Positions 41,654 to 63,145 of a DNA stretch of 64,000 nt are shown one piece after another; the stretch's first letter is position 1, and each line of letters starts with the position of its first letter. The notes beneath the pieces were generated by a model that saw only the letters and a list, made by a program, of their open reading frames with translations, ran no database searches and was not told where the DNA came from. The position numbers and the translations under genes were made by a program. The DNA is from a virus: positions 22,059-86,058 of IMG/VR virus record IMGVR_UViG_3300042400_000421. One strand, written 5' to 3'.

Positions 41654-42020
41654 TTTCAACAACCCTTCTTGCGCCAACAATTAGATGATGAAGTCTTCCA
41701 CCAAAACCCATTTGCTTACGGATACTTATTATTTCCAATGGACCAGTTTCAATTACATTTCCATAACGATCTTTTACATTTAAAATTCTATTATTGTAAG
41801 AGATAAAACCAGAGTCTTGATAAGAAATGTAAAACTTATATTCTTCAATGTTTTCAATATATGGCTCAATTCTTCTTTCGCTGACTCCTGACTGGTAAGA
41901 GGCAGGGATAGTCGCTGTTTTTGTAAATGTTATTGTTTTTTGACCGGCAGCATTTGTATCAGTTATTTTTTGATAAACATCAACCGTGTGTACAAACCTT
42001 AGATATGTTTTTGCTGCCAT
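41646..42020 (-). CDS. head-tail adaptor/stopper
   Basis: Beta-rich, 124 aa, HHLIV near the C-terminus; synteny. Confidence 0.7.
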   Translation of the reverse strand: MAAKTYLRFVHTVDVYQKITDTNAAGQKTITFTKTATIPASYQSGVSERRIEPYIENIEEYKFYISYQDSGFISYNNRILNVKDRYGNVIETGPLEIISIRKQMGFGGRLHHLIVGARRVVENA

Positions 42021-42931
42021 TAGACCACATAATCCATCACAAACAGTGTGTAATCCATAAGCAAGATATCTGCTTCAATGTTCCCCGTTGATTCATAGAA
42101 GTTCTGATTCATATACAACGAGATTGCATCCATGTCAGCTCTATAAATTCCGTGATTACGATATTCAGAGTCATTATTCATAATATCGGCAACAAGAAGT
42201 TGAGCAGCCTGCTTTATATTGTCAGGAACATATCTCCAGCCATAATCTCCAGTTACTTTATAAATAGAGTCATTATTAAATTTTCCAATAAGAAATGTGT
42301 TCTCTAAACTATTAGATTTCTTAAATCTAATGTTCCAGCTTGTATCAAAGCCAAAACCTTGCTTTACTTTTTCAATATTTGATGTATTCTCTCCGTAAAG
42401 AATAAACTCATCATCAGTTCCGGGATCTTGTACAACATCAGTCATTGTTGAGATAGGTAATGGTAATCTAAGGCTCGAAAAACCGTTGCCATTTATAGAG
42501 ATTGAAAGATCCTGATAGAAGTCAAAGGACTGTCCACAGAATGTATTAATTATGTTCCTGACCCTCTTGTTCAGAGCTTCAAAATTGTTGGCAAATGTAT
42601 CCTCAAGTTCTGGATAAAGGTCAAAAAACTCTGAGGCCGTCAAGTAGGGGGTATAGACATTTATATAGTCAGATTGGGTATAGGAAACACCAGATACCGT
42701 ATAGGTAAAATCAACCCTGTGCTTGCCTGCTGAATTTAAAATATAGATTCCCGAACTTCTCTGCCCAAAGGTGATTGTATAAACCCCTGTGCCCGTTCTA
42801 GTGGCGCTGGTTGGACCTGAGACTAGATCGCCGAATTCATGATAGAGCGACACCGATACCAGATTTGAGGTTGGGTCACTTGGCAGGGTTAGTGTAAGGG
42901 TTTTAGATGTGTTGATTTTTACTTCATCCAT
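42020..42931 (-). CDS. head-tail connector (adaptor) protein
   Basis: IINTFCGQSF, YGWRYVPDNIKQAA, TGNIEADILL. Confidence 0.75.
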   Translation of the reverse strand: MDEVKINTSKTLTLTLPSDPTSNLVSVSLYHEFGDLVSGPTSATRTGTGVYTITFGQRSSGIYILNSAGKHRVDFTYTVSGVSYTQSDYINVYTPYLTASEFFDLYPELEDTFANNFEALNKRVRNIINTFCGQSFDFYQDLSISINGNGFSSLRLPLPISTMTDVVQDPGTDDEFILYGENTSNIEKVKQGFGFDTSWNIRFKKSNSLENTFLIGKFNNDSIYKVTGDYGWRYVPDNIKQAAQLLVADIMNNDSEYRNHGIYRADMDAISLYMNQNFYESTGNIEADILLMDYTLFVMDYVV

Positions 42932-42972
42932 TATGCTTTAATTATACAGCATATAGGTTTAGTTGGTAAATC

Positions 42973-43263
42973 TCAAAACCACCAAAAATGTTTCACTATA
43001 GACAAACTGGCTAGGATGACCCAAAGCACATTGAAGAGGATAATTGTTGGCAAAGTCTTGCGGGTTGATGTCCAGATAAGACTTATGCTTGAAATGATGG
43101 CAAAGATATATAACCACCACCATTGTTTATCAAGAAGAAGACCCGGAAAGATAATTGCAATCTTTGTTGCAAATCCCCAAGCCTCTACTGAGTTAACCCT
43201 TGTCCAATAAGAACGACTACTCATCGTCTTGATTGCATCAATTATTTTCTTAAAGAATACCAT
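42973..43263 (-). CDS. small three-TM membrane protein
   Basis: Three hydrophobic stretches; Trp-rich. Confidence 0.65.
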   Translation of the reverse strand: MVFFKKIIDAIKTMSSRSYWTRVNSVEAWGFATKIAIIFPGLLLDKQWWWLYIFAIISSISLIWTSTRKTLPTIILFNVLWVILASLSIVKHFWWF

Positions 43264-44042
43264 TTCTTTTTTTCCTTCATCTCTTGCTCTATTCTAATCT
43301 GGTGCTGTCTATAAATCCGGCTATCATCCCTTTGAGCTAAGCTTCCTTTGCCCATACCATTCCCATTTATAAATCTACGCATTGATTCATTTCCCCAAAT
43401 AATATTTTTAAAATCTCCATGCCTATGATATGGAATCATATGCTGGATAGGTGTTCCGGCTGGAATAGTAAACTCCTTGTCCGTTAAAACATTTATCACA
43501 ACATTTATTTGGTTATAAAAATCAGTATGAACAATGCCCGGAACAATTGTATAATTTTCATTAGGTTCGTGTAGCATTGGTAGCGCAATAAGAGAAACCC
43601 CTTTTGGAGTGCGATATCTCCAAGGTGTTACTAATTTAGGGAATTGACCTGTTTGAACTTTATTATGTTTTGATATAGGACACCCCTCAGCCATTTCTTT
43701 GTTGAAGCCATCAATTGGAAAAGAATAATGATCATTGAAATCAGATGTTTTAAATTCAAAACGCTTACCAGTGGAGTCTGGTCTTATTGTTACATCACAC
43801 CATAGAGGGATTACAAAACCAGCAGTTGAGTAATCGTATACACCTTGGCATCTTCTCAATGAAAAACGGTCATGTGGTAAATCTTTCCACCAAGAAGGTA
43901 ATTTTTTTTCCGTAAGATATGGCGGAATGCCCATGATCCTATTGTCATCAGGGATTATTACAATTTCATTCTTCTTGGGCTTAGGTATATCTTCTAAGAA
44001 ATTTACAACCTTATATTTGTATTTGTTTGAGCGATTCCGCAT
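43242..44042 (-). CDS. hypothetical beta-rich protein of the halogenase/oxygenase cassette
   Basis: LPSWWK, CQGVYDY..GFVIPLW, KLVTPW, PGIVHTD, IPAGTPI; overlaps the halogenase end. Confidence 0.65.
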   Translation of the reverse strand: MRNRSNKYKYKVVNFLEDIPKPKKNEIVIIPDDNRIMGIPPYLTEKKLPSWWKDLPHDRFSLRRCQGVYDYSTAGFVIPLWCDVTIRPDSTGKRFEFKTSDFNDHYSFPIDGFNKEMAEGCPISKHNKVQTGQFPKLVTPWRYRTPKGVSLIALPMLHEPNENYTIVPGIVHTDFYNQINVVINVLTDKEFTIPAGTPIQHMIPYHRHGDFKNIIWGNESMRRFINGNGMGKGSLAQRDDSRIYRQHQIRIEQEMKEKKKWYSLRK

Positions 44043-45480
44043 GGTCTACCTTTGCATGATTTGATTGTTCTATCTTAGCAGAGTCAACAAGATGAATTAC
44101 ATGATCTCTAATATTGAAGTACTCAATTAACCTAGTGGCATTCTCTCTCTTCAAGACCCCTTGCCCTTGTGCAACATGATACAAATGAGGAACATGGAAA
44201 AGTTCAAAATCAACATTGCCAACATCAGTTGCCATTGGGCTGCGTACACTCCATAGATCTAATAAATTATTCAAATACTCTGGCTTTTCCATGTTCTTCT
44301 GGTTTCTCCACATTTCACTATCATCTCTATCAGAAATATAGTGAAGGGAAATCATGGAAACCAAGTTATCCATCATAACATCCATTTTTTTATTAAAGTT
44401 GTTACCGACTATAGAATTAGAATCATCATAGCCTACAAAGTTTTCAATAAAGCACCTAATTTGCTGAATTGTTGAGCTTATTGAAGTAGCCTCTAGTGGT
44501 TCAACAAATGAAGAACACAGACCCAAAGCCAAACAATTCTTATACCACATTTTGTCAAGACTTCCCGGTTCAAATTTAAAAGACTTCTTTGGTGTAACTT
44601 CAAACCCAAGCAAATCTGATACATCCTTTATAGCCTGATCATCCGAAATTAAGTCAGAGTTGAATACATAACCGTTACCCCGCCTGCTTTGAGTTGGAAT
44701 TTCCCAAACCCATCCATTAGCAGTTGCTCTAGCCCGAGTATAGGGTCTAATCTGACCACTGGGGTCAGACTCTGTTGGGAATGCTATAGCAGCATTCATT
44801 TGAAGGAACTTTGAGTAAGACCTCCACTTAGTATTCCCCATTGCATTCATCAAGACTCTGGCTGTACCACTAGCATCAATCCAAAAATCCGATGTTTTTA
44901 CATCCATATTGGATGTCATAACAGATTCGATATATCCATTTTCATTATTCAAATTTACTTTTATAACCTCAGTATCTTCAATACTGATTCCTCTATTTTG
45001 GCATAATTTTTGCAAATAATCATTTAATCTATTTGTATCAAAATGGTATTGATTGACTGATGTATGTGGATTATCCGCTCTGACCTTGTTTTCAATCATA
45101 GCTCTAGATGCAGTATTTTCAGTCAGTGTTTTTCCAGCTTCAACCAATCCATTGTATAAACCACTTATTTGAAAAGGACCTTCATAGGGAACAGACGCAA
45201 CGCTATGGAAATAATCAGGGGTATGCTTTGTCCAATTTTCAAATCGAATACCATTTTTATGAGTAGCATGTGTCTCATTAAGCATTTCTGCAAGGGGTAT
45301 CTTGCAGATATCCATGAACATACGCCAATGTTCTGTGCTACCTTCCCCAACACCAACGATTCCAATCTTTGATGAAGACAATATTGATATATTGAATCTT
45401 GGATAAGCTGCTTTTATCATTAAGCCAGCTAACAGTCCAGCAGTGCCAGATCCAACTATTGTAATGTTCTTTGTATACAT
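44011..45480 (-). CDS. flavin-dependent (tryptophan halogenase family) halogenase
   Basis: GSGTAG FAD motif, GVGEGS, catalytic Lys in ATHKNGIRFENW, YHFD, IDASG, WxWxIP (WVWEIP), FVEPLEATS. Confidence 0.93.
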   Translation of the reverse strand: MYTKNITIVGSGTAGLLAGLMIKAAYPRFNISILSSSKIGIVGVGEGSTEHWRMFMDICKIPLAEMLNETHATHKNGIRFENWTKHTPDYFHSVASVPYEGPFQISGLYNGLVEAGKTLTENTASRAMIENKVRADNPHTSVNQYHFDTNRLNDYLQKLCQNRGISIEDTEVIKVNLNNENGYIESVMTSNMDVKTSDFWIDASGTARVLMNAMGNTKWRSYSKFLQMNAAIAFPTESDPSGQIRPYTRARATANGWVWEIPTQSRRGNGYVFNSDLISDDQAIKDVSDLLGFEVTPKKSFKFEPGSLDKMWYKNCLALGLCSSFVEPLEATSISSTIQQIRCFIENFVGYDDSNSIVGNNFNKKMDVMMDNLVSMISLHYISDRDDSEMWRNQKNMEKPEYLNNLLDLWSVRSPMATDVGNVDFELFHVPHLYHVAQGQGVLKRENATRLIEYFNIRDHVIHLVDSAKIEQSNHAKVDHAESLKQIQI

Positions 45481-46547
45481 ACAACCTTATCTATCATTTT
45501 TTTTGGATCAATACTTGGTGAGTATTGTAAACTATTTTTATTTTCAAAATAAACTTGAATAAGTTCAAGGTAATCTTTGCCCTCATAATCAATATTATTC
45601 CTTGTAACAATGTCATACATAAAAGTATCTATTTGATGTCTTTCTGAGGCAAGAACGCTTGGTGGTATTACAACACCACTTGGATGTGAATTGCTCAAGG
45701 ATGTTAGGGTTCTATACTGGCAATTTGATTTAATAAAATCAGAAAGGACTTCCGGCATTTCTTCTGCTAATTCATTTTCTCTTCCAGTATATGGCTGACC
45801 ATTTAAATACTTGGATAGCCTAGACGGAGGATATTGAGTGGACAACCATTCTTCTAATTCCGATGGGATGTTTAAACTTGCCCATAAAGCCTTTGCCTTT
45901 TGAGAAATCTCAATATGCTCTTGAACATCACTATCCGACACCTTAGCCCATTCATAAATAAGTTTAAGTATTGAAGAATAAGACCTTCCAGCTAGAAGCT
46001 GGTTGAATTCGTCATTAGGGTTTTCATTTTCTACTTGTAGAGTCTCAAAATATGCAATATGACAGACACCAGAAAGGCTAATTGGATTGAATGTTTTGGA
46101 TATCACATAGGGGTTGGTATTTTTAGGAATAAAAAAAGGAAATCCGCCATATTTCCCGTAATCGCATCGAAGCGGGTGTGTTCCATCTTTTGTTTTTGAA
46201 GTACCTTCAATTTTAGAATAGTCTTCAAAACTTGGCAATTCAATGGAATTAACAAATAAAAAAAATTTAAAATAATCAAATACTTTTTTATCTAAAATAT
46301 CAAACATTTGATCAAAATAAGTTAAATTAATATTTATACCATTACAAATAAAATTATGGACACCAACGCCCCTGACTGGGAAGGCAATAATCTTGCCAGA
46401 TTCTGTATTGATTACATCATAATCATTATAAGGAACCAAACCGTCTACGGTATTAACCTTTAAATCAGTATTGCTCACATCCCCTATGAAATAGAAGCTT
46501 TCATAGTCAAGGGGGTTAATTTCATTAATGCTTTTCATATGAACCAT
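45456..46547 (-). CDS. hypothetical protein
   Basis: 363-aa ORF overlapping both the oxygenase and the halogenase; no recognised motif. Confidence 0.7.
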   Translation of the reverse strand: MVHMKSINEINPLDYESFYFIGDVSNTDLKVNTVDGLVPYNDYDVINTESGKIIAFPVRGVGVHNFICNGININLTYFDQMFDILDKKVFDYFKFFLFVNSIELPSFEDYSKIEGTSKTKDGTHPLRCDYGKYGGFPFFIPKNTNPYVISKTFNPISLSGVCHIAYFETLQVENENPNDEFNQLLAGRSYSSILKLIYEWAKVSDSDVQEHIEISQKAKALWASLNIPSELEEWLSTQYPPSRLSKYLNGQPYTGRENELAEEMPEVLSDFIKSNCQYRTLTSLSNSHPSGVVIPPSVLASERHQIDTFMYDIVTRNNIDYEGKDYLELIQVYFENKNSLQYSPSIDPKKMIDKVVCIQRTLQ

Positions 46548-47173
46548 GTTACCAGACTATATTTTACACCATTATCAACTGGGTGCGCTATGTGTGTATA
46601 TGGAAAATTGGATGGGAAAAGAATCACATCATCCTTGTTCAGCTTGACTGTCAAGTTGAAATTATTAAATTCCAATTCTCCTCCATCAAAACCATCTTCC
46701 CCTAGGCAAGCAACCATGCTAAGAATTCTTTCATTTTCGGAACCATGATCATGGTGTATATGGTATTCAGAACCACCTGTGTATTTTAATAAAGAATACC
46801 CTGTCTCTGTTTTTAATGAAAGGTCAAAAAAGTTTCTATAGTCCCAAATGCATTCGTTTAGGGGTGTAAGAATGTTTTCTATAAACTTTCCTTTTAAATC
46901 TTTTAAATCTTCATTAACATCTTCGGATAAGAGTACATTCATTGACATTTCAAGAGAAGTTCTGTAATCGCCAACAAACCCATTGTTTACACCATTGCCA
47001 GTTGATGACTGCATCCATAACAAATATGCCCAATCTCTATTTGCTTCACTTTCAATTAAATTAGTAAAATTTTCACTTTTTAATGCGTTTCTATATATAA
47101 AAATACACGGAGCTTGTTCAAATTTTTCAATTGACAACAAAACTAAATTCCTCTTCTTTATTATCGTCAACAA
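46535..47173 (-). CDS. 2OG-Fe(II) oxygenase (prolyl-4-hydroxylase-like)
   Basis: LLKY...HHD...FDGGEL.F...FPSNFPYTH...KYSLVTW (HxD...H triad). Confidence 0.92.
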   Translation of the reverse strand: MLTIIKKRNLVLLSIEKFEQAPCIFIYRNALKSENFTNLIESEANRDWAYLLWMQSSTGNGVNNGFVGDYRTSLEMSMNVLLSEDVNEDLKDLKGKFIENILTPLNECIWDYRNFFDLSLKTETGYSLLKYTGGSEYHIHHDHGSENERILSMVACLGEDGFDGGELEFNNFNLTVKLNKDDVILFPSNFPYTHIAHPVDNGVKYSLVTWFI

Positions 47174-47531
47174 GAATACTGCACAGATGCTCGCCAGAGG
47201 TTTGACAAAGGTAGTTGTACCTTACAGTGTGCATTTCTTCATAAATAGGTTTAATTGATTCATTGTTTATTAAAAGTTTAATGTTATTCTTTAAAGTTTT
47301 ATATTCATTAATATATCGGATACATTGATGAAAACCAATAGGTGCTTCTGTGTACAACAGACTTAGATCCTTCTTTTCTGGGATTTTAATCACTGACACA
47401 GTGTATCTATTGAAATCAACATCTGTGGATTCTTGCGAATCTCCAATTAAAATTGGAAGACCTGTTTTGATCGCCAACTCTTCTGCGCTAGCAATATGGT
47501 CATCGCTAGGGCAATACACATATCTTCTCAT
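47127..47531 (-). CDS. hypothetical protein
   Basis: Coupled ORF in the cassette. Confidence 0.6.
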   Translation of the reverse strand: MRRYVYCPSDDHIASAEELAIKTGLPILIGDSQESTDVDFNRYTVSVIKIPEKKDLSLLYTEAPIGFHQCIRYINEYKTLKNNIKLLINNESIKPIYEEMHTVRYNYLCQTSGEHLCSILVDDNKEEEFSFVVN

Positions 47532-47764
47532 TACAAGTATCGATTCAGCAAGTCTTTTGTTTGGATATAGTGCTCGTAAGCATTTTTTAATGAAGCAAAT
47601 TTAACAACATCTTCTGGGGATGTTTTGTCGTCAAAAAACCCTGATTCAAAACTGTCAGGATCTATTCCTGCTTGAATCAGACCAGAATACAGACTTCTTT
47701 GAGCTTGTGTTATATTTTCTTCAACAATTTTTTTCTTGTCTTCATCTGTTATGTTAAATATCAT
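47531..47764 (-). CDS. small helical hypothetical protein
   Basis: SD aggag; immediately after the fibre gene. Confidence 0.65.
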   Translation of the reverse strand: MIFNITDEDKKKIVEENITQAQRSLYSGLIQAGIDPDSFESGFFDDKTSPEDVVKFASLKNAYEHYIQTKDLLNRYL

Positions 47765-47772
47765 AAAATCTC

Positions 47773-49872
47773 CTATGTGTTTAAAATTGTAATTACTGAA
47801 CCAGATTGACCTGCTCCACCACCAGACACAGTTCCACCAATTGTTGATGTTACCACCGTGTTGGCTATTGAGTCAGTAATGATAATTATACCACCACCAC
47901 CACCAGTGATGCCAGCTGATCCGGCAGTTGATGAACCAGCAGCGCCTGCAGTTCCACCATTTTTTACGACACTTCCTTGACTTGATACGGACCCCGCTGT
48001 TCTGTAGCGATATGTCCCATGATTGTATTGGTTGTGATACCTTGGCCATGCAGATGCAATATGCCATGCCCCGCATCCGGAAAAGAATTTATCCCCCCCA
48101 TGACCACCGTTATGCTCAACACCCTGATGGGGACCATCATGACCAATATGAAATTCACCGCTTGTGTGTGAGCTATCTGCGATTCTTGCTTCTCCAATAT
48201 TACCTCTATGCCCCGGAGTATGGTCAATGCTATTAATCCCATAGTATGTTCCAGTTAATGAATCAACATGTGCGTTATTGTTATAATCACCGCTGTGATG
48301 TGCATAATTTCCTCCTTGGTTATTTGCAGCACCAAAGTTATAAGTTCCGGGACCATGACCAAAAGTGCGATTAGTTTGTACCCCGCACCAATAAGAACAA
48401 TCCCCCGAACAGGTAGTATGGTGTACCACACCTCTATGAACATGGTGGTAGGTATACCCATGCCTATAATTCTCTGCATAGGCAACATTCGGTCCGCCAT
48501 GTGGAAGATTTGGGGTAGGAGTTGAGGCATGAGGTCCATGTGTTCCATCACCTGTTATATAATGCTTTGAACCATCAACCAAGTGAGTTAATGGTTGATT
48601 AGGAGCTGCTGTACCTGCACTTCCTGTTGAGCTATTTGCACCAACATTTGCATTCTGCCCTTGAGCTAAAATTGTTCCTAATCCAGTGATTTGCTTGGCA
48701 ACAATGAGGACAATACCCCCGCCGATTCCGCCGGTTCCTCCAACAGACGCAGGTGGTGTTGTACCAGCAGTTCCGGGACCGCCCGGTGCAAGAGCATTTC
48801 TGTTAAGTTCACCAGCACCACCATTTGTTGCAGGGGTTAAAGTTCCAGACGCACCAGACGCACCAGCAGCTCCGCCTCTTATTGCAGACACTGTTCCTTC
48901 GGTATCTATCACGATACCAGAAATCAATGTTTCAATATTTTTCCTATCAGAGTCAGTTATTTGTGATGCTGTATATGTATTACCACCAGAATTTCCTCCG
49001 ATGGCTTTTGCGATATTACCAGAGCCAAGGAGCATACGCTCTGCAAGGGTCGAATTAGAATAAAGTTGTTGCGGGATGACTCCAATATTACCAGTAAGAG
49101 TCAGTGTATTTTTTACAAATACACGATAACCGTTTGTATTCAGATGAACTCCGGTATTAATAGTAAGATTGTTGTAGTACATATCTCTAGAAAGAGATGT
49201 GTTTGAGGCAATTACAACAGTACCGTCAGACCCGGTTCCGTAAACTGAGTCATTACCAATTCTTTGAACTGAAGAGGATGGCTCAACTGAGAACATCCGC
49301 ACCGGTCTTACGCTGTGTGATTCAGATTTCAAAGGACCAACGGCATCCAAGTATAGCCACATAGAAGCTCTTGAGAATGCATCGCCATAGATAGTTCCAG
49401 TTTCTTGCGTTGAACCCCAATAGTTAGCATTGCCTAGATTGTCTGGATTGTTAAGGCCTCCTATGTCTCCATTATCATAAAAAAGAGCGGATACCATTTG
49501 ACCAAGTTCAAATGAAGATGGAAGAAACCAGTCATTCTTACCACCAGAAGTGCAAGTTCTAGCCAAAGCTGCTGCTGATGTAGCGGGGTCTGTATTTCCC
49601 TGAGCGATAATGGCTAAAGTATTAGCATAACCAGTTCCATATGCAGTGCCAGTCGCTCCGAGAACATTGGATGTTTGATAAGATGTTTGCGCCCAAGTCC
49701 TTTTAGGATCTGCCCCAACCCCATTCCACCCATAAGGAGCAGCTTCAAAATATTTCCCTGTTTCATTACCGGAAGTTGATGGAGTAGCAAATATAAATCC
49801 ACCGCTTGGACCAATATCGCCAACTGCAAATGTTCTTAATGTTTTAGGACTATATCTTTCTAAACCAGCCAT
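47773..49872 (-). CDS. Gly-rich fibre/decoration protein with N-terminal DUF1566-like (CLec) domain and His-rich insert
   Basis: GTGYANT...DWFLPS..EL...YWGST...VRPVRMF; scaffold shared with 49874..50605; 26 His in the 197 aa encoded by 48591..48001. Confidence 0.75.
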   Translation of the reverse strand: MAGLERYSPKTLRTFAVGDIGPSGGFIFATPSTSGNETGKYFEAAPYGWNGVGADPKRTWAQTSYQTSNVLGATGTAYGTGYANTLAIIAQGNTDPATSAAALARTCTSGGKNDWFLPSSFELGQMVSALFYDNGDIGGLNNPDNLGNANYWGSTQETGTIYGDAFSRASMWLYLDAVGPLKSESHSVRPVRMFSVEPSSSVQRIGNDSVYGTGSDGTVVIASNTSLSRDMYYNNLTINTGVHLNTNGYRVFVKNTLTLTGNIGVIPQQLYSNSTLAERMLLGSGNIAKAIGGNSGGNTYTASQITDSDRKNIETLISGIVIDTEGTVSAIRGGAAGASGASGTLTPATNGGAGELNRNALAPGGPGTAGTTPPASVGGTGGIGGGIVLIVAKQITGLGTILAQGQNANVGANSSTGSAGTAAPNQPLTHLVDGSKHYITGDGTHGPHASTPTPNLPHGGPNVAYAENYRHGYTYHHVHRGVVHHTTCSGDCSYWCGVQTNRTFGHGPGTYNFGAANNQGGNYAHHSGDYNNNAHVDSLTGTYYGINSIDHTPGHRGNIGEARIADSSHTSGEFHIGHDGPHQGVEHNGGHGGDKFFSGCGAWHIASAWPRYHNQYNHGTYRYRTAGSVSSQGSVVKNGGTAGAAGSSTAGSAGITGGGGGIIIITDSIANTVVTSTIGGTVSGGGAGQSGSVITILNT

Positions 49873-49873
49873 A

Positions 49874-50605
49874 TTACACCAATTGAGAGTATATCACTGA
49901 ACCATTGACACAACTTGTTCCGCCTGTTACATTTGTTGTAATTCCAGTTGGTAAGGCTGAATGGGTTGAAACAACAATGATTACTCCACCTCCTCCTCCA
50001 CCGCCACCAGTTAATCCAGAGGCTTTAAAATAAGAAGTTGCGGTTGGGGAAATATAACGAGCAGCGATAATAAGAACTCCACCTCCCGGACCTCCAGAAC
50101 CACCTGCACCCCCTCTTAAAAAGAGTGGTGTTGTGTTGCTTGCGTTAATGACATATCCTTTTACAGATTGGGTTGGTTGGTACCAGAATCCACTTGTCGT
50201 TGTTTTATCGCCTGTACCGCCTTGTGCGACTGTTGGTGGAGTTGCAGTCTGTGTTGCACTGTTTCCTCCAAGGCTATTTGTAACCGCAGTATTAGTAGCA
50301 CCACCACCCGCAATAGAGCCAGTGCCTGAAAAACCAGTCGTCATCGTATAGTTGTTGGCTGTACCTACTCCAATAGTAGAGTTGGAAGCCAGAGTTAAAA
50401 TATTTTTTACAAAAATTCTATAACCCGCAGTATTTAAAACAACATCAGAGTTAACAGTGAGGTTATAATAAAATTGATCAGATGTTAAAGTTGTATTTGC
50501 AGAGATAGTTACTGTACCATCAGAGCCAGTCCCATAGGTTGAATCTGGGGCATCAATGAATGATGAGAAAGCATTTGCGGAAGGAAATCTAGATATACCG
50601 GCCAT
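49874..50605 (-). CDS. Gly-rich virion protein, paralogue of the 47773..49872 scaffold
   Basis: YGTGSDGTV...YYNLTVN...LNTAGYRIFVKN; GGGGGGVIIV. Confidence 0.7.
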   Translation of the reverse strand: MAGISRFPSANAFSSFIDAPDSTYGTGSDGTVTISANTTLTSDQFYYNLTVNSDVVLNTAGYRIFVKNILTLASNSTIGVGTANNYTMTTGFSGTGSIAGGGATNTAVTNSLGGNSATQTATPPTVAQGGTGDKTTTSGFWYQPTQSVKGYVINASNTTPLFLRGGAGGSGGPGGGVLIIAARYISPTATSYFKASGLTGGGGGGGGVIIVVSTHSALPTGITTNVTGGTSCVNGSVIYSQLV

Positions 50606-50964
50606 TACGACTCCTCAACTCCAAAAATAGTTACATTCAATGCAGAGTTTGCAGAGCATAAAAATGTAATCTGATCACTAGTTGTATTGCTTGCAGTATT
50701 TCCATTGTTAATTAAAACCATTGAACAGTTAAAAGCAAGAGTTTCATTAGCATTAACTGTTATATTACTTAATATATCATGTGTATTGGCTTCGGCAACA
50801 TTAAGAGGCTTTAAACGAATGGTTGCAGTTCTTGAAGACGCTGTTGTATTTGTGATTAGAATTTGTTTAACAATTGTAGTTGTGTTTAGAGGTACAGTAT
50901 AAGCAACAGCAGTAACTGTTGATATCTGGGTTGGACCAGCCAACCTTTTTTGACTAATTGGCAT
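50605..50964 (-). CDS. small beta-sandwich virion protein (paralogue of 57128..57460)
   Basis: YTV...IV..I...N...TVNANET...GVE. Confidence 0.6.
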   Translation of the reverse strand: MPISQKRLAGPTQISTVTAVAYTVPLNTTTIVKQILITNTTASSRTATIRLKPLNVAEANTHDILSNITVNANETLAFNCSMVLINNGNTASNTTSDQITFLCSANSALNVTIFGVEES

Positions 50965-51722
50965 TATATAACCTCCATATAGAATCTGATCATGTTGTCA
51001 CGAACAGTATTGCTATTTACCCATAAACTACCATTATATTCTAAAACCTGTCCTGATGCTGGGGTTGTGATGGAAACATCGTGGAGTTCATCTATTTCGT
51101 ACCCATTCTGTGTTGCAACATAGACAATTCCGTTATTTGTTGCACGAACAACAACGCCAACAAAGACGAGGTGTTCTGGGGCAGATGGTTTTGTTTTTGT
51201 AAAAGCCCCATTTTCGCCAAGCCATAAAACATCGCCAGCCGTGTATCCAACCGACAGATCAATACCATCGACATATCCACGAGTGACAACAGGACCGTTT
51301 TCAGAAGTTGCAATCGATGAAGCGACTAATCCTATTGTTTTGGATGATGTAGCATCAGAGTCATTGTCTGCTCTTTTTACTGTTGCATGGTCACCTGTTG
51401 CCCCAAAGAGATAAACAACAGTTCCGGTTGTAAGCGTTGTTGCCTCAGCATTACGAACATAAGTTGCGTTTGAAGCATACTTATTAACCCAGTTGGTACC
51501 GTCATAAACAAGAGATTCATATTCTAGTGGCGATGTAATTACGACATCGGTAAGACCATCTAGATTTAAAGAACCAGAACTCCCGAATTCAACAATAGTA
51601 TTAGAAGAGTTTTTATAAAAAAGCTTACCGTCAGCATAATTAAGCCCTAACTCTCCATGCTCAAGCGTAGAGGGGACTGCAGTAGTTGTTCCTGAGTTTT
51701 TAATTTTAATGGTGTTAGCCAT
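50964..51722 (-). CDS. fibre-like virion protein
   Basis: MANTIKIK..VPSTLEHGELGLNYADGKLFY N-terminal attachment motif; LxDV-I...LxYxGxxWVN repeats. Confidence 0.7.
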   Translation of the reverse strand: MANTIKIKNSGTTTAVPSTLEHGELGLNYADGKLFYKNSSNTIVEFGSSGSLNLDGLTDVVITSPLEYESLVYDGTNWVNKYASNATYVRNAEATTLTTGTVVYLFGATGDHATVKRADNDSDATSSKTIGLVASSIATSENGPVVTRGYVDGIDLSVGYTAGDVLWLGENGAFTKTKPSAPEHLVFVGVVVRATNNGIVYVATQNGYEIDELHDVSITTPASGQVLEYNGSLWVNSNTVRDNMIRFYMEVI

Positions 51723-51734
51723 TACTTCCTCCTA

Positions 51735-52835
51735 CTAGAAAGTACCGCCATCTACTGTATCAGACCATGCAGGTACACCTGCTACAACTTTCAAGAACTG
51801 ACCTGTTGTTCCGATTCCAAGATTGGAAAGAGTGTTTCCAGATGAGGAATAAACTAAATCACCAGTTGTGTAAGAAGTAAGACCAGTACCTCCAGATGTT
51901 GAAGCAATTGCTGTACCATTCCATACACCAGTCACAATAGTGCCAAGTGTAGTCAAACTTGAGTATATGACTCCTGACCCTAAAGTTGTATTTGAAAGAA
52001 CTGAAGTTCCAGCGATTTCGTAAACTTTTCCTGCAACGAGGTTTAAATCTTCAGATGAAGTCCATGCGTCTGTTGCATCAACCCAGTTGAAGGTTTTGTT
52101 TGTTGCGCCAAGAATTGTAATACCAGCGCCATCAGCCGTTGTATCTGTTGGAGTAGCAACATTTGCAAGAACAATATTCTTATCCTCAACAACCAGAGTT
52201 GCGGTATTAAGAGTTGTTGTATTCCCATTAACAATCAAGTCTCCTGTAACGGTAAGTGTATTTCCAATTGTTACATCATCTGGAAGACCAATTGTTACAG
52301 CACCAGTCCAAGGACCAGTGCCAGTGCCAGAGACAGTAACTTCATTTGATGTTCCTGTGACTGATGTAACAGCAGCTGTTCCAAGATCGCTAATTTGTGA
52401 ACCAGTAATTGAAATCGTTGTATTACCAGCAGCAGTTAGACGACCATCCCCCTGTACAGTGAATGTAGCAACAGTATTTGCACTACCATAAGAACCGACT
52501 GTGACTGCTGTATTGCCAAGAGTAACTCCAGAAATTGCATTATCAACATAAAGTTTTGTTGCAGCATGAGTGTTTGCTGTTGGAGTAGGTACAAGAACAA
52601 GACCATTGAAAGTCTTATTTCCTGATACTGTTTGAACACCAGAGAGGGTCAAGTATGCGCCTGCACCACCAATTGCTTCTACTGTTGTAGCAGTGCCTCC
52701 TGCACCACCCGTTCCTTTACCGTAGTAAAGAACATCGTCTACTTCGTTATATGCAAGTTCTGCATTCTCCAGAGAGGCTGGTGCACCGGCTGCTCCTCCA
52801 GAAGCCCTTCTTTTAATTCTAATTGTATTAGCCAT
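51735..52835 (-). CDS. fibre-like virion protein
   Basis: MANTIRIKRR...PASLENAELAYN; VTGDLIVNG..T....VEDKNI; ends VDGGTF. Confidence 0.72.
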   Translation of the reverse strand: MANTIRIKRRASGGAAGAPASLENAELAYNEVDDVLYYGKGTGGAGGTATTVEAIGGAGAYLTLSGVQTVSGNKTFNGLVLVPTPTANTHAATKLYVDNAISGVTLGNTAVTVGSYGSANTVATFTVQGDGRLTAAGNTTISITGSQISDLGTAAVTSVTGTSNEVTVSGTGTGPWTGAVTIGLPDDVTIGNTLTVTGDLIVNGNTTTLNTATLVVEDKNIVLANVATPTDTTADGAGITILGATNKTFNWVDATDAWTSSEDLNLVAGKVYEIAGTSVLSNTTLGSGVIYSSLTTLGTIVTGVWNGTAIASTSGGTGLTSYTTGDLVYSSSGNTLSNLGIGTTGQFLKVVAGVPAWSDTVDGGTF

Positions 52836-52836
52836 T

Positions 52837-53112
52837 TTAGTAATTACCTCCATCAAGTAATGTATTTGCGATTGAGTGAGCATGGTCTGCTCTACTTGCA
52901 ACCTCAAGAGTTCCGCTATTTGCGGACCTTGTTATATCCAACGGCGCTGCGTCAGATAATGTTAAAATTCTTTCTAGTGTTATTGTTGTTGGAGCACCAA
53001 CGATGGTTGTTATATCACCATTCTGAACGCTCAATATACTTGCATCACCACTAGACACAGATAAACTTGTTATATCACCAGTATTAACCTGTAAGATTGT
53101 TGTATCAGCCAC
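52837..53112 (-). CDS. small virion protein
   Basis: ASRADHAH fibre motif; ends LDGGNY. Confidence 0.6.
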   Translation of the reverse strand: MADTTILQVNTGDITSLSVSSGDASILSVQNGDITTIVGAPTTITLERILTLSDAAPLDITRSANSGTLEVASRADHAHSIANTLLDGGNY

Positions 53113-53440
53113 GACTTACCTGACCTGTCAATGAAACTTTGCCTGTCATTAAAGTTGTTACATACGAACCATTTGTTTCTTCAAAGTCGTAAAAATAAAT
53201 TCCAGGTTCTATTGAAGATGTAGCATCTGAAGAAAGAGACATTGTTACAAGACCATTAGCAGCACTTGTTACAGCAACGGTGAAAGAAAGGACTACGGAA
53301 TCAGACGAGCGAGATTTGCGCATCTGAGCCGTATAAGTTCTTCCTGTAATGTTTGTATTAACATTCGCACTATTTCTAATCCGAATTTCGTGCGTATAAC
53401 TATCACCTTTGTAAATTGAGATATTTCTTTCTGCAGCCAT
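53105..53440 (-). CDS. Ig-like/BppU-like virion attachment protein
   Basis: IYKGDS...ITGRTYTAQMR...YFYDFE...LMTGKV. Confidence 0.65.
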   Translation of the reverse strand: MAAERNISIYKGDSYTHEIRIRNSANVNTNITGRTYTAQMRKSRSSDSVVLSFTVAVTSAANGLVTMSLSSDATSSIEPGIYFYDFEETNGSYVTTLMTGKVSLTGQVSRG

Positions 53441-58605: not shown

Positions 58606-59637
58606 TTAGAGGCTACGAAGCTTAACATTCTTGCCGATTACATACGAATCTGCGTTTTCAATGTTGTTACCAACACGCATAAACTGAGTATACTCAATTG
58701 TGTCGCTCTTTGGCTTGAACTGACGATAAACTGTAATATCACGGTGGATACCAATGATACGGTTGTTAGGGAATGTCAATTCAATGTGACCATGGGAACC
58801 GGCTGTACCTGAGTAATCGCCCGTAACGGTTTCTGGCATAAGTGGAACTTCCACCAATGGGATACCGAATGGAGAGATACCAGTTGAACCAGGACCACCA
58901 TTCATACGCATTGAACCTTGCAAGAAAGCCATGTCACCTGCTAATGAGCCTGGTGATGGTGCGCCTGCAGTTGCGGCTGTAGCGGAGTTTGGATTGCCCA
59001 AGCTGTAGATTGTGTCCTGAACAACGCCTGAACCAGAGAAGAACTTCAGTTCATTTCTGCGCTGAAGGTACTTGGTTGGCATGTTGCGAAGGATACGGTC
59101 GTAAGTAGCTCTTGAAACCTGATTACCAGCTTCATCAACTGTACGGCCATTGGCTTTTGCAAGCTTAATGAAACCATCGACAGCCTTGATAAGACCATTG
59201 TTTGAAGATGTATTACCATTGATGAACAAATCGTCAAGGTCGTTAGCTGTTTGACGAGCCATAACCTGTGCGATGTGGTCTTCAAGGGAAGCGCCTTCAA
59301 TGTTGTCCTCAAGTGACTCTGTTGATACGGACCAATCAAGACGCAACTTAACGGTGCTGATTGATACCTTGCTGAAGGTGACGGCTGCATTTGTGCCGTC
59401 ATCTGTTGCCTCGGTTGCCTTTGAAAGCAAACGAGTTCCAACGGAAACCTTATCGATTTCCATTTGTGGAGTACGCATGCGAACGACTCTTGCGTTCTGC
59501 ATTAATACTGATTGGTCAATGACGAAATCAAGGAAACGATTCGACTGGGCTGGCTTTAACAGACCACCAGAATCATTACCAACAACACCTGTTGTTACTT
59601 CATTAGCCTTTGAAAGAATTTCTTCTTGTGATGCCAT
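58606..59637 (-). CDS. major capsid protein (HK97 fold)
   Basis: GGLLKPAQSNRFLD, STESLEDNIEG, DLFING; strong SD gaggagg. Confidence 0.93.
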   Translation of the reverse strand: MASQEEILSKANEVTTGVVGNDSGGLLKPAQSNRFLDFVIDQSVLMQNARVVRMRTPQMEIDKVSVGTRLLSKATEATDDGTNAAVTFSKVSISTVKLRLDWSVSTESLEDNIEGASLEDHIAQVMARQTANDLDDLFINGNTSSNNGLIKAVDGFIKLAKANGRTVDEAGNQVSRATYDRILRNMPTKYLQRRNELKFFSGSGVVQDTIYSLGNPNSATAATAGAPSPGSLAGDMAFLQGSMRMNGGPGSTGISPFGIPLVEVPLMPETVTGDYSGTAGSHGHIELTFPNNRIIGIHRDITVYRQFKPKSDTIEYTQFMRVGNNIENADSYVIGKNVKLRSL

Positions 59638-59652
59638 ATTATATTCCTCCTC

Positions 59653-60012
59653 TTATGACTCGTAACCAAGGGCGCTGATAACGCTCTGTGGTAAATATAC
59701 GTTGTTCCATACTGACTTTGGAGCAGACTTGGCAATTGCCTCGTCTTCTTCATCGTCTTCTGGGTCAACACTCTTTTTGATAGCTCCAGCGTCAGCAAAC
59801 TTGCTAACTTGCTCTTCTGTCTCAGAGAGAGCTTTTTCTGCGGCTTCTAATTTTTCTTGAAGTTCAGCAGTGCTGGCTTCAAAACCCTTTGTAATATTGT
59901 CGATCTTATCGTTTAGCGATGCCTCAACTTCTTCCTTAATGGAAGTAGCGAAGTTAGCCAACTTATCGTCAACAACAGCACTCAGAGCATCTTTAAGGAC
60001 TTCAATATCCAT
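59653..60012 (-). CDS. nested in-frame scaffolding protein (119 aa)
   Basis: Internal caggaggaacatATG (MDIEVLKD...). Confidence 0.65.
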   Translation of the reverse strand: MDIEVLKDALSAVVDDKLANFATSIKEEVEASLNDKIDNITKGFEASTAELQEKLEAAEKALSETEEQVSKFADAGAIKKSVDPEDDEEDEAIAKSAPKSVWNNVYLPQSVISALGYES

Positions 60013-61215
60013 ATGTTCCTCCTGTGTGTTTTCATTAACTTCAACTATATCTGTTGTTGAAGCATTTTCTTGAACATCTGGAACAAGCCAATTGACTAAT
60101 CTCTTCAAAAGAGATAGCCTATTTATTTCTTGTTCATTCATGTCTAAGACCATATCACAGTTTACATCATTTTGCAATAAAATATCCTGTGTTTCAATTA
60201 ATTCTGTATCTTCTACAGATTTATTTGCAATCATTTCATCTTTTTCCTTTTTCTTTTTCTGGGGCTGTGTTGGAGTTTTAAAACTTCCTTGTGTTGGATT
60301 TTTAATTCCCGCACCCATATTCCCAGATGTGACTTCACCTTCTTTCTTCATACCTTTCTCTTTAGTATTCTGATAGCGTTCAAGAAGTCTGCGACCTTTT
60401 GCAGCAAGTTCTGCTGCATCTTGTGCGTTTTGTGGTACTGGTTCTCCCCAAGCTGCTGCAGAGAGAGCAAGCCTTGTAGGTCTACCTTTTGGATCTTTCA
60501 TTGGACCAGATGGATTTGTAAAAAAGCGTGTAAGGAATGAGCCTTTTCTACGCATTTTCTCTGGCGTATCTGCTGCACCTCGGACTCCGGGCTTGAGATT
60601 TGCGCCCTCAGTCTCCTTGAAGTGTCTACGACCTGCAGCAGTCAGACCACCCTTAGGGTCTTTGAGAGGTTGCTTTGCTTTTTCAAAATCAATATCTTCA
60701 AGAACATCCAAAATATAGTCAAGATTGCCATCAATATCCATTTTGATAATATCAACAATTGCAAGTGCATTTGCGGGGTTATCAACTAAACTCAACTCAC
60801 CAAGCGTATATTTTTTAATAATATTAACTGGTCGGCCTCTAAACATTTTTTCTGTAGACTCAGCCTTTTCCATAATTTTTCCACCAATGGAAAATGCTTG
60901 AAGAGTTCCATCAAGGATTTTTTCCCAAGTATCTTGGGCACCCTTTGAAATATAAGCACTTACTTTAATAGCCTTATATTTTTCACCATCTTCAGATTCA
61001 ATTTCAACTGGTTCATAACTAATAGCTTTACCTACGGCAATGGGGTGATGCATTTCTCTAATATTTCCACCCCAATTCTTGAATGCCTCTAAAGAAGCAC
61101 TAAACTCAACAATATCGCCGGACTTATCAATATTGTCAGCAGTAGCAATACCACTAACAATTCTTTCTTCTCTTTTGATCATATCAATAGGGAAAGATAA
61201 ATTAAAGTTTTCCAT
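59653..61215 (-). CDS. prohead protease fused to a basic inserted domain and C-terminal scaffold
   Basis: IREMH...AVGK...FSIGG...ELSLVDNPAN protease motifs; acidic coiled-coil C-terminus. Confidence 0.88.
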   Translation of the reverse strand: MENFNLSFPIDMIKREERIVSGIATADNIDKSGDIVEFSASLEAFKNWGGNIREMHHPIAVGKAISYEPVEIESEDGEKYKAIKVSAYISKGAQDTWEKILDGTLQAFSIGGKIMEKAESTEKMFRGRPVNIIKKYTLGELSLVDNPANALAIVDIIKMDIDGNLDYILDVLEDIDFEKAKQPLKDPKGGLTAAGRRHFKETEGANLKPGVRGAADTPEKMRRKGSFLTRFFTNPSGPMKDPKGRPTRLALSAAAWGEPVPQNAQDAAELAAKGRRLLERYQNTKEKGMKKEGEVTSGNMGAGIKNPTQGSFKTPTQPQKKKKEKDEMIANKSVEDTELIETQDILLQNDVNCDMVLDMNEQEINRLSLLKRLVNWLVPDVQENASTTDIVEVNENTQEEHMDIEVLKDALSAVVDDKLANFATSIKEEVEASLNDKIDNITKGFEASTAELQEKLEAAEKALSETEEQVSKFADAGAIKKSVDPEDDEEDEAIAKSAPKSVWNNVYLPQSVISALGYES

Positions 61216-61257: not shown

Positions 61258-61518
61258 TTAGCCAACTGCGTAAGCTGCAAGACTTACTCCGGCTGTAACA
61301 ACTTTAATCGTTGTATAGTCTCCCGGAATTTTATGGTATAAATGACTTCCATTAGTTGGTGAATGTGGAATAAGAATTTGATGTCTTCCATTTAATTCAA
61401 TAACAACATTGGTGTTATTGTCAGTGTTATGGACAAACAAATAATCAGTGTGATGTCCAATTGACACCACTCCATCTGTGCTTGCGATAGCTGTTGTTGT
61501 ATATACAATACTACTCAT
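61258..61518 (-). CDS. small hypothetical (virion?) protein
   Basis: Start MSSIVY with SD aaggag, overlapping the portal stop. Confidence 0.6.
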   Translation of the reverse strand: MSSIVYTTTAIASTDGVVSIGHHTDYLFVHNTDNNTNVVIELNGRHQILIPHSPTNGSHLYHKIPGDYTTIKVVTAGVSLAAYAVG

Positions 61519-63145
61519 TTTTTTCTCCTTCAAATACCTTAACGGTATCTATATTGTCGCCAGAATCTTGACTCTGGCCTCTTTCTTTTTGATCTCCACT
61601 GCCTTGAACACCCGTTGGTGTTGAGCCAGCATCTGATCTAGACTTTGGTGGAATTGATGAAGCATTATTGGAATTGCCAACTGGCGCTCCTGCTCCTTCC
61701 TTTTTAACTTTTGTAGGGAAAGGAAGGACTTCATCACCATCTTTACGTTCTGGCAACCCAACCTTAGTTCTAACTTCATTTGGAGAAATAACTTCAGTTC
61801 TAAGATATCTATCGTAGATTCTTGATTCCATATCTTCATCCATAAGATCAATCTTATTAAGTTTGAATTGCAGAAGGTCTGTAAACTCTTTAACCAGACG
61901 ATTGAGTTTCTTTTCAATAACTGCTTGATCTGGTCCAATCACTTGCATCTTAAATGTTTTATCGGCATCTCTTGACACTGCCAAGTTTGCATTGTCATAA
62001 ACTCCGACTTTGGGAGCAGGAACCCTATTTGCGACAAGTATCTCATCACGGTTTGATTTACGATATTTATCAAAAGATGAATCTTGAATTCCGGCTTCTA
62101 ATTTTTCAAATTTAATATCAGTATCAGAACCAATAGATGCAGGCAAAGGAATAATTAAAGTACCGTGATTGCGACCTTTAACTTCGTTTCTAAAATAATT
62201 AACAAGCTCTTGTTTCGAGCGCTGACTAATCTTTGCACCTTTAAGGATAATTGCATAACGAGGAATGGCTTTGTTTTCAAAATAGTCAATATTATATTCT
62301 TTAGCAAATTTGTCTCCAATTATTGCTGCAGCAGCAGAAACGGCTGCAGGAATACCATAATAAGTATTGTTTGGAGAATACATTTTAAAGTGAATAATCT
62401 CGTTAGGGCTTGGGTCCATGTTAATTGGGTCTTCCATCCCCAAGTCTTGAAAGTTTCTAAAGAATACAGCTTGAATCTTATTACTTCTAGAAATCTGTAC
62501 AAAACCATCTCTTTTTCTACGAACTCTTACCATTGTTCCAGGGATATGACCGATATACCCAATCTTCCCAGAATTATTGCGACCAATTTCTAGATAACCG
62601 TTCCCAATTGTAAGAACATCTTGCCAAACACGAACCATTGTCTCAATCAAAGTCTCTTCAATATTAAGATCCTCAAAAGCGTCATCAAGTTCTTCTTTGA
62701 GATCTTGCATCTGTCTTCTCATTCTCTCAAGTTTTACTTTGTCATCTTGAACTCTTTCAATCTTCCTTTTAGCCTTCAAAGTTTCTTGGAATTCATAACC
62801 TAGACCAACGGTATTCATTACACGGGCATTAATAGCCGCATAATGAATAGAACTTTGATCATAAAGATGTGCAAGATTATCTAAATCATAAGGAGGATTG
62901 ATAATGTCCCATAGTGAATATCCGTTAACAACAAGAGGATCAATATATTTACTTGCTGTACCGTCTTCGCCTTCATACTTCTTTTGAAGTCTTTGCGCTT
63001 TCCTCTTCATTCTTGGAGAAAGTGAAGACATTTTAACTGATAAGAATGGATCTGTTACTTTCTTTTCTGCATCAAAAGCGCTGTACGAGATATCGTCAAA
63101 CTCTACTTCAACTTGTTCATCTTGAACGACTTCCATTTTTTGCAT
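61511..63145 (-). CDS. portal protein
   Basis: IGNGYLEI.R, EIIHFK, YYGIP, YFENKAIP, ISPNEVR..GL. Confidence 0.93.
   Translation of the reverse strand: MQKMEVVQDEQVEVEFDDISYSAFDAEKKVTDPFLSVKMSSLSPRMKRKAQRLQKKYEGEDGTASKYIDPLVVNGYSLWDIINPPYDLDNLAHLYDQSSIHYAAINARVMNTVGLGYEFQETLKAKRKIERVQDDKVKLERMRRQMQDLKEELDDAFEDLNIEETLIETMVRVWQDVLTIGNGYLEIGRNNSGKIGYIGHIPGTMVRVRRKRDGFVQISRSNKIQAVFFRNFQDLGMEDPINMDPSPNEIIHFKMYSPNNTYYGIPAAVSAAAAIIGDKFAKEYNIDYFENKAIPRYAIILKGAKISQRSKQELVNYFRNEVKGRNHGTLIIPLPASIGSDTDIKFEKLEAGIQDSSFDKYRKSNRDEILVANRVPAPKVGVYDNANLAVSRDADKTFKMQVIGPDQAVIEKKLNRLVKEFTDLLQFKLNKIDLMDEDMESRIYDRYLRTEVISPNEVRTKVGLPERKDGDEVLPFPTKVKKEGAGAPVGNSNNASSIPPKSRSDAGSTPTGVQGSGDQKERGQSQDSGDNIDTVKVFEGEKNE

Follow-up and report, generated by a model that had tools for sequence, protein, structure and literature searches.

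Why phages carry halogenase genes has been a puzzle ever since the first cyanophage genomes. A 2005 paper judged them probably non-functional (PMC1079782), and a possible role in antibiotic protection of the host has also been put forward (PMC2984593). The only characterised viral halogenase, VirX1 of Syn10, forms a trimer whose active site is large and open; it halogenates many small aromatics in vitro, and it has no known natural substrate (PMC8407142). In Syn9, two tryptophan halogenases sit in a cluster with ten dioxygenases and a dUTPase-fold protein with a conserved cysteine, a set that Iyer et al. (2010) read as a route of secondary-metabolite synthesis (PMC2938197). Here we describe a minimal relative of this set in a 64,000-nucleotide stretch of viral DNA (the window, positions 22,059 to 86,058 of IMG/VR record IMGVR_UViG_3300042400_000421). 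In this stretch, one flavin-dependent halogenase, one 2-oxoglutarate (2OG)-Fe(II) oxygenase of the prolyl 4-hydroxylase (P4H) type and a protein with a predicted dUTPase fold, p266, are encoded in the same gene string as a long fibre-type protein with a His-rich insert. We find that fibre and enzymes are inherited and exchanged together, which bears on the original prediction, made for this DNA, that the insert is the substrate of the enzymes.

The likeness to the Syn9/Syn10-type neighbourhood lies in its parts: a classical 2OG-Fe(II) dioxygenase, a Trp_halogenase enzyme with an intact lysine and a protein of predicted dUTPase fold with a conserved cysteine, all phage-encoded in or beside structural genes and with no known natural substrate. 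In fact, p266 fits the Syn9 protein described as having a dUTPase fold and a conserved cysteine (PMC2938197). The two sets differ in size, virus and company. The window has one oxygenase and one halogenase against about ten dioxygenases and two halogenases; it comes from a freshwater actinobacterial siphovirus and not from a marine myovirus; and its trio lies in one recombination unit with a His-rich fibre and two small proteins, p77 and p134, a link missing from the 2010 description. No paper found in our literature search ties the trio to a His-rich fibre. The enzyme trio is thus already known, and what is new is a reciprocal swap with mapped breakpoints, a two-way survey of presence and absence, a ranking of divergence, a sister flavour with a PF11397 glycosyltransferase, and the specificity of p77 and p134.

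The swap is seen by comparing the window with two related loci. Against L004, identity reaches 95-100% only over ~42,780-49,870, from the fibre gene to that of the small protein TM96, and the flanks are at 52-85%. Against L028 the converse is found: the flanks are 92-100% identical, while 43,115-49,886 (fibre to p266) is at just 35-66%. Next to the fibre gene stands gly243, which encodes a short, His-poor paralogue sharing with the fibre a YGTGSDG...GYR[IV]FVKN core and a GGGGG-hydrophobic C-terminal strand (0-4 His across all loci); it is 97% identical to the window in L028 and 67% in L004. Thus, the fibre travels with the enzymes while its paralogue stays with the backbone. Inside the block exchanged with L004, the insert is the most diverged portion (84-92% against 98-100% elsewhere). 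Synonymous divergence (dS) is 0.02-0.04 in the enzymes, 0.20 in the insert and 0.50 in p77 (47531-47772, taken with the 3' end of the fibre gene), which suggests that this spot either mutates fast or underwent another, small recombination event. The halogenase is under strong purifying selection, its ratio of nonsynonymous to synonymous divergence (dN/dS) being 0.02 against L004. TM96, at the edge of the exchanged block, is 80-99% conserved among close relatives.

Presence and absence were surveyed in two ways, in the best 80 of 209 adaptor-anchored matches and the best 80 of 152 fibre-core matches. About 60 of the adaptor-anchored loci are without the cassette, the fibre, gly243 and p119 (a small conserved gene before the fibre pair), all together. 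The fibre-core hidden Markov model (HMM) matches only cassette-bearing loci, always as a pair of a His-poor and a His-rich protein. In the fibre-core-anchored set (39-98% identity), each of the 43 distinct His-rich-fibre loci with adequate context has halogenase, oxygenase and p266, counting those with the enzymes upstream, those with a duplicated module and those whose module has moved elsewhere in the structural region. The original prediction held that it would fail if the enzymes occurred independently of the insert across relatives. Within this fibre family they do not (43/43, ~60 joint absences and a joint exchange), and so far the comparison is positive; in myoviruses, the trio is carried without a His-rich protein. 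Two loci, L173 (IMGVR_UViG_3300042291_001557) and L197 (IMGVR_UViG_3300042545_001591), hold two sets of short paralogue and fibre ~9 kb apart; each set of L173 has its own halogenase and p266, and the second set of L197 runs off the end of the locus.

The genes of the module also diverge together, to different degrees. Over the 43 modules, the divergence of the halogenase correlates with that of p266 at 0.77, of the fibre core at 0.62, and of the oxygenase and the short paralogue at 0.49 each; p266 is therefore the tightest partner of the halogenase. The fibre core and its own adjacent short paralogue correlate at 0.47.

Among the loci inspected, the fibre core occurs without a halogenase only in L204 and seven relatives (within L211-L218). 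In these loci, the same fibre core carries a Pro/Tyr/Asn-rich insert (0-2 His, 29-71 Tyr, 31-62 Pro), and behind the fibre gene come a short paralogue, a glycosyltransferase of PF11397 (E 1e-26 to 1e-29), a pair of p266 genes and an oxygenase of PF13640; p77, p134, p363 and TM96 are all missing. We take PF11397 to be the family of Gnt1, the hydroxyproline GlcNAc-transferase. Of all the observations, its presence with an oxygenase beside a Pro-rich insert hints most strongly at the fibre as what the oxygenase, and with it the whole module, acts upon. The two p266 paralogues of one such locus (L217, 9187-10616) match Pfam DUF6065 weakly (E 7.5e-5 and 0.008), a possible family name.

Both flavours share a core of p119, short paralogue, long fibre with insert, oxygenase and p266; p119 is found in 30 of the 32 complete His-type modules and in all four glycosyltransferase-type modules L211, L212, L215 and L217, and is missing from cassette-less relatives. 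To this core the His flavour adds the halogenase (43/43), p77 (32/32) and p134 (29/32), and optionally TM96 (22/32) and p363 (20/32). None of the glycosyltransferase-type modules has p77, p134 or TM96; p77 and p134 are specific to the halogenase/His flavour.

The original prediction had counted Tyr and Trp among the likely targets, and this part has become less likely. In some relatives, His-type inserts go down to 0 Trp and 2-5 Tyr, while His is always dense, and the sister fibres, rich in Tyr, have no halogenase, so that abundant Tyr does not call for one. It is with His, rather than with Tyr or Trp, that the halogenase goes, and if the fibre is the target, His is the residue implicated. The His columns are also the best conserved of the insert (0.61 against 0.23-0.33, with Tyr at 0.27). 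The fibres of L016-L018 have short inserts (~115-123 residues) that are rich in His and Cys, with paired CC motifs and almost without Tyr or Trp, and look metal-binding.

The layout of the locus agrees with the original prediction (Table 1), which had described a fibre gene followed by seven tightly packed or overlapping open reading frames (ORFs), wedged between fibre genes and the head-tail connector. All nine minus-strand ORFs are in place, and the gene order is confirmed, with portal, protease, capsid and fibre-type genes upstream. Eight nucleotides (nt) separate fibre and p77; p77 and p134 overlap by 1 nt, p134 and oxygenase by 47, oxygenase and p363 by 13, p363 and halogenase by 25, halogenase and p266 by 32 and p266 and TM96 by 22, and a gap of 41 nt precedes the adaptor. 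Between the capsid terminator (58,582-58,555) and the adaptor no convincing terminator was found, hence none inside the gene string, and promoter-like matches are not in excess (52 against 58.4 expected from shuffled sequence).

Table 1. Features of the fibre-enzyme module and its surroundings, in window coordinates (aa, amino acids; pLDDT, predicted local distance difference test; pTM, predicted template modelling score).
Feature	Position	Strand	Basis
Recombination unit, fibre through TM96	42865..49886	.	Identity profiles against L004 and L028
Portal	61511-63145	-	PHROG/Pfam scans
Protease/scaffold	59653-61215	-	PHROG/Pfam scans
Major capsid protein	58606-59637	-	PHROG/Pfam scans
562-aa unknown, between capsid gene and fibre-assembly-like gene in reading order		-	
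Fibre-assembly-like gene	53105-53440	-	PHROG/Pfam scans
Fibre-type genes	51735-52907 and 50964-51722	-	PHROG/Pfam scans
p119, small conserved gene before fibre pair	50605..50964	-	Weak phrog_1276 match only
gly243, short His-poor fibre-core paralogue, Gly-rich beta-helix type	49874..50605	-	Common core motif
699-aa fibre-type protein	47773..49872	-	ORF and translation
His-rich insert, ~aa 406-656	47905..48657	-	Composition and alignment; 26 His, 15 Tyr, 3 Trp, 4 Cys
p77, small acidic protein	47531..47764	-	ORF; family search blank
p134, 4-Cys protein	47127..47531	-	ORF
P4H-type 2OG-Fe(II) oxygenase	46535..47173	-	PF13640 E 1.2e-12
p363, N-terminal beta-sandwich and helical C-terminus	45456..46547	-	Model, pLDDT 70.6, pTM 0.75
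Flavin-dependent halogenase, Trp_halogenase family, intact catalytic core	44011..45480	-	Pfam E 2.4e-94
p266, 266 aa, predicted dUTPase-fold protein with invariant Cys65	43242..44042	-	Predicted structure and alignment
TM96, Trp-rich, three hydrophobic segments (three-TM)	42973..43263	-	Hydropathy
Head-tail adaptor, backbone gene, downstream boundary of the module	42020..42931	-	phrog_442 E 1.9e-9
Major tail protein, then 2033-aa tape measure, past the adaptor		-	

From its position and architecture, we take the 699-aa protein to be a virion fibre. An Lcl_C-like N-terminal domain (a weak match, E 0.0011, below the Pfam cut-off) is followed by a Gly-rich beta-helix core, the His-rich insert and a Gly-rich C-terminal strand, and Gly/Pro-rich segments are present. 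The insert is hypervariable, is 251 aa long and includes the HYITGDGTHGPHAS stretch; the His, Tyr and Trp counts first given for it were reproduced exactly.

The halogenase matches PF04820 with 317 bits (cut-off 21), residues 5-447 covering positions 1-449 of the 458-position profile. In the HMMER alignment to 2apg, the PrnA structure, it keeps GSGTAG, Lys75 (Lys79 of PrnA), GWVWEIP and, with the conserved Glu of the FxEPxES motif, FVEPLEATS, so that the GxGxxG motif, the catalytic Lys and the WxWxIP motif of the original prediction are all seen there. Its best sequence matches in the PDB are PrnA and Th-Hal (~2-3e-50), RebH (~1e-45) and VirX1 (2e-33). The alignment of this 489-aa protein stops at residue 433 of the 538 of PrnA, which leaves its last ~73 residues unaligned, and the position of PrnA F103 is a Val. 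In PrnA, the C-terminal module binds free tryptophan. The genome has a single halogenase and a single PF13640 gene.

The oxygenase scores 49.1 bits against PF13640 (cut-off 27). Seven orthologues all have H140, D142, H194 and K204; the HxD...H motif noted at first is indeed retained, and the HxD points to a hydroxylase rather than a halogenase type of enzyme. Weak PDB sequence matches are to PiuC and the collagen P4H of Bacillus anthracis (E 0.002-0.007). Peptidyl-proline hydroxylation is a candidate activity, for which the support consists of this marginal P4H similarity and the pairing with PF11397 in the sister clade. The oxygenase is common to both flavours, and some relatives have 2-3 of them. 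As a class, 2OG oxygenases include base hydroxylases (PMC2938197).

The third partner, p266, is predicted to have a dUTPase fold. Its AlphaFold model is of moderate confidence (pLDDT 68), and Foldseek matches it to dUTPases at probability 1.00, with template modelling scores of up to 0.74 normalised to the target. An independent aligner, VIA-align, gives Z 10.2 with a root-mean-square deviation of 3.7 A over 126 residues; its top 11 matches are all dUTPases, and ranks 12 and 15 are herpesvirus tegument proteins, in which the fold has a non-catalytic role. The Pfam dUTPase match is below cut-off (18.3 bits against 22, over 41 residues only), and there is also one to phrog_7084. In an alignment of 13 sequences, K23, P41, W51, C65, G67, G75, K136, P140, W141, G196 and P204 are invariant, and the conserved catalytic motifs of dUTPases (the motif III Asp and motif V) were not found. 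With no invariant Asp, p266 is unlikely to be a working dUTPase. A gene of this family lies beside ribonucleotide reductase in the Halorubrum phage HF2 (L108, 48119-49003), and ~40 other records of haloarchaeal tailed viruses have such genes and no halogenase.

Of the small members, p77, p134 and TM96 match nothing credible in Pfam even at E up to 1, and the best protein-atlas score of p134 (0.88) is under the 0.9 level of a usable lead. TM96 has the three hydrophobic segments by which it was first called a three-TM protein. It is in none of the ~60 relatives without a full cassette, barring weak matches in L095 and L097; these two loci, otherwise without cassette and fibre, give by tblastn a distant halogenase match (31-32%) and a TM96-like match (53%). 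The fold of p363 has no PDB sequence match and no significant Foldseek match, and VIA-align (Z up to 6.1) finds helical bundles only. In the cassette-less L031-L033, a p363-like gene follows a Gly-rich, His-poor protein of 348-380 aa directly upstream of the adaptor, and in L093, p363 has a separate recombination history; for these reasons, p363 looks fibre-related and not enzymatic. The Gly-rich protein of L031-L033 has weak PF21722 and F5/8 type C matches.

Beyond this fibre family, the halogenase shares 30-38% identity with those of P-SSM2, S-H38, S-PM2 and the pelagiphage HTVC008M. In HTVC008M, the halogenase gene comes after a 2OG oxygenase, between two terminase genes and beside neck genes. 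In P-SSM2, its direct neighbours are fibre-assembly-like genes, an oxygenase lies two genes away, and one of the fibre-assembly-like products is 31% identical to that of the window. Myovirus-like contigs have 2-4 halogenases, runs of oxygenases and a p266 homologue, and Gly-rich proteins of PF21722 (Gly_rich_2) sometimes adjoin. The PF21722 proteins near the myovirus trio are His-poor; the fibre-core HMM misses those beside myovirus halogenases, and we do not claim that they are of the same family.

The virus itself is a freshwater actinophage, a siphovirus with no close cultured relative. The record has 86,058 bp and is ~82% complete by CheckV; the window holds structural and replication genes, all on the minus strand. 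The G+C content is 34-44%. The region was found only in lake-water and freshwater metagenomes, none of them an RNA dataset; blastn against cultured phages found no relative of the 6.9-kb region, and tblastn no match of the fibre in cultured phages. The capsid protein is ~50% identical to those of ~130-kb Streptomyces siphoviruses. Two WhiB-family genes are present, one in the window (22383-22562, minus strand, E 1.9e-11) and one outside it (record 13684-13887, E 3.3e-20); among control genomes, WhiB searches matched only Corynebacterium. WhiB genes, capsid protein and lake-water origin point to a freshwater actinobacterial host. Elsewhere in the window, a GT4 glycosyltransferase, an FkbM-type methyltransferase and two unassigned ORFs (11291-15132, minus strand) lie between the Pol III alpha gene and recA, possibly a second tailoring set, unlinked to the fibre cassette. 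The replication module has two C5 cytosine DNA methyltransferase genes (6651-8042 and 8427-9083, minus strand), one full-length and one N-terminal-only.

To explain these results, we favour, with slightly more doubt than belief, an accessory, late-expressed fibre-tailoring module of freshwater actinophages that acts on the fibre insert. The enzymes would act during virion assembly, on an insert looped out of the fibre beta-helix. The oxygenase may hydroxylate residues in the Gly/Pro-rich or insert segments, and the halogenase, drawing FADH2 from the host and halide from the lake water, would halogenate electron-rich side chains. Going by the correlation, the imidazole rings of the conserved His would be its likeliest targets, with Tyr and Trp less probable. 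We envision p266, p77 and p134 as non-catalytic adaptors presenting the fibre to the enzymes. Proteins of the dUTPase fold and fibres are normally trimers and VirX1 is one as well, so that a 3:3 complex is conceivable. The outcome would be altered receptor binding, metal binding or stability at the fibre tip. The chemistry in full, with the halogenase halogenating insert His (perhaps Tyr or Trp), the oxygenase hydroxylating the insert and the sister clade pointing to modular, exchangeable tailoring, is a distinctly more doubtful proposition. The original choice of the insert as substrate is supported in part, by co-inheritance, swap and sister clade, and opposed by the myovirus trio.

Several points weigh against fibre tailoring. 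No His-rich protein lies within 10 kb of the myovirus trio (HTVC008M, P-SSM2, S-H38, L019-L025, L127/L128); in cyano- and pelagimyoviruses, the trio needs no His-rich fibre. Likewise, p266 homologues occur without a halogenase in haloarchaeal viruses and jumbo-phage contigs. The nearest solved homologues of the halogenase use free tryptophan or indoles, and we know of no flavin-dependent halogenase described to act on histidine. The conservation of His columns may be inflated by aligner bias, and the retention of 28 of 28 fibre His between the window and L004 has a chance of ~0.14 by our own estimate, not significant alone. The sister flavour is a single clade, which makes the co-variation of insert and enzymes one contrast and not a replicated one. 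Contiguous genes can stay linked without interacting. Finally, every step from co-inheritance to catalysis on the fibre is one that we infer, and the modification is a prediction.

The alternative that survives best, though we find it rather unlikely, is a small-molecule pathway. The enzymes would hydroxylate and halogenate a free amino acid, an indole or a host metabolite during infection, to give an antibiotic-, siderophore- or signal-like product, and the fibre would be a mere neighbour, accessory genes gathering beside hypervariable fibre genes. Iyer et al. proposed the same for the trio (PMC2938197), and jumbo cyanophage clusters have been interpreted likewise. The free substrates of the solved homologues, the small aromatics taken by VirX1 in vitro and the myovirus trio without His-rich fibres all fit. 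But the early remark that neither a flavin reductase nor small-molecule pathway genes are visible extends to the whole 86-kb record, where we found no flavin reductase, peptide synthetase, scaffold-forming, activating or export enzyme. Enzymes and fibre are unseparated in 43 of 43 loci and are swapped as one unit, and the enzyme set shifts with the chemistry of the insert. A place in a late structural operon, with translational coupling, would also be unusual for a metabolite pathway.

Linkage without interaction is unlikely. Here the insert would itself be a metal- or receptor-binding tip, the enzymes would act elsewhere (on the host envelope, another virion protein or the Gly/Pro-rich segments of other fibres), and breakpoints in conserved flanks would hold the block together. 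In fact, the exchanged block is bounded by the highly conserved end of gly243 and by TM96/adaptor, and it is mosaic inside, as seen from the dS of p77 and the separate history of p363. The metal-binding look of the CC-paired inserts of L016-L018 also suits this explanation, as do the Gly/His-rich, metal-binding structural proteins of Nereis jaws (PMC9465683). Against it, the divergence of the halogenase follows that of the fibre core more closely than the fibre core follows its adjacent paralogue, fibre and enzymes stay together even in relocated, inverted-order and duplicated modules, and pure hitch-hiking would hardly make insert and enzymes change type together, as they do in the sister clade.

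It is highly improbable that p266 handles a pyrimidine nucleotide modified by halogenase and oxygenase, for example at C5, so as to yield modified phage DNA: its predicted dUTPase fold, the ribonucleotide reductase beside its HF2 homologue and the base hydroxylases among 2OG oxygenases would fit, but p266 lacks an invariant Asp and falls short of the Pfam dUTPase cut-off, the oxygenase is of P4H and not TET/JBP type, the cassette stands among structural genes, a long way from the 1-25 kb stretch that holds the genes for replication and nucleotides, the sister flavour joins p266 and oxygenase with a glycosyltransferase presumably directed at protein hydroxyproline, and the dUTPase fold is repurposed non-catalytically in herpesvirus tegument proteins.

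Fibre tailoring, our favoured reading, has parallels in other systems. The RiPP (ribosomally synthesized and post-translationally modified peptide) halogenases MibH, SrpI and ChlH modify peptides, halogenating Trp. The proposal for the window is similar in that a ribosomal polypeptide is encoded alongside the enzyme. The candidate substrate differs, being a 699-aa structural protein and not a short leader precursor, and His is implicated, not Trp. Pfam and PHROG scans of p77, p134, p363 and TM96 found no leader, recognition element or protease of the RiPP-like tailoring that was originally proposed, although a novel recognition protein could escape them.

In the Skp1 pathway, the prolyl 4-hydroxylase PhyA makes hydroxyproline, which Gnt1 then glycosylates (PMC3515798). 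The window shares with PhyA and the collagen-type P4H of bacteria and viruses a PF13640 oxygenase with HxD...H...K, and in the sister flavour this oxygenase goes with a PF11397 glycosyltransferase beside a Pro-rich fibre with NPNNAPTY repeats. The window itself has no PF11397 gene, and the similarity of its oxygenase to solved P4Hs is marginal. Animal materials offer a further likeness, of composition only and without homology: Nereis Nvjp-1 and sponge skeletons are Gly/His-rich extracellular structural proteins in which halogenated His and Tyr are natural. To our knowledge, the halogenating enzymes of these animals are not flavin-dependent halogenases. 5-Bromohistidine is present in sponge skeletons (PMC8659048).

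The locus is a minimal system, with a single fibre, halogenase and oxygenase and three small partners, in which comparative genetics point to the insert as the target. Should the fibre prove not to be the substrate, the tight co-inheritance would still want explaining, and the module would be a compact handle on the Syn9-type pathway. If the insert is indeed halogenated and hydroxylated by these enzymes, this would be the first enzymatically halogenated virion protein and the first flavin-dependent halogenase to act on a folded structural protein or an imidazole, and it would supply the long-sought class of natural substrates of viral halogenases such as VirX1. Fibre tailoring, if true, would also mean a new class of protein-modifying halogenases for biocatalysis. 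Phages would then edit their own adhesins, by halogenation and hydroxylation here and by glycosylation in the sister clade, adding a new layer to the evolution of host range.

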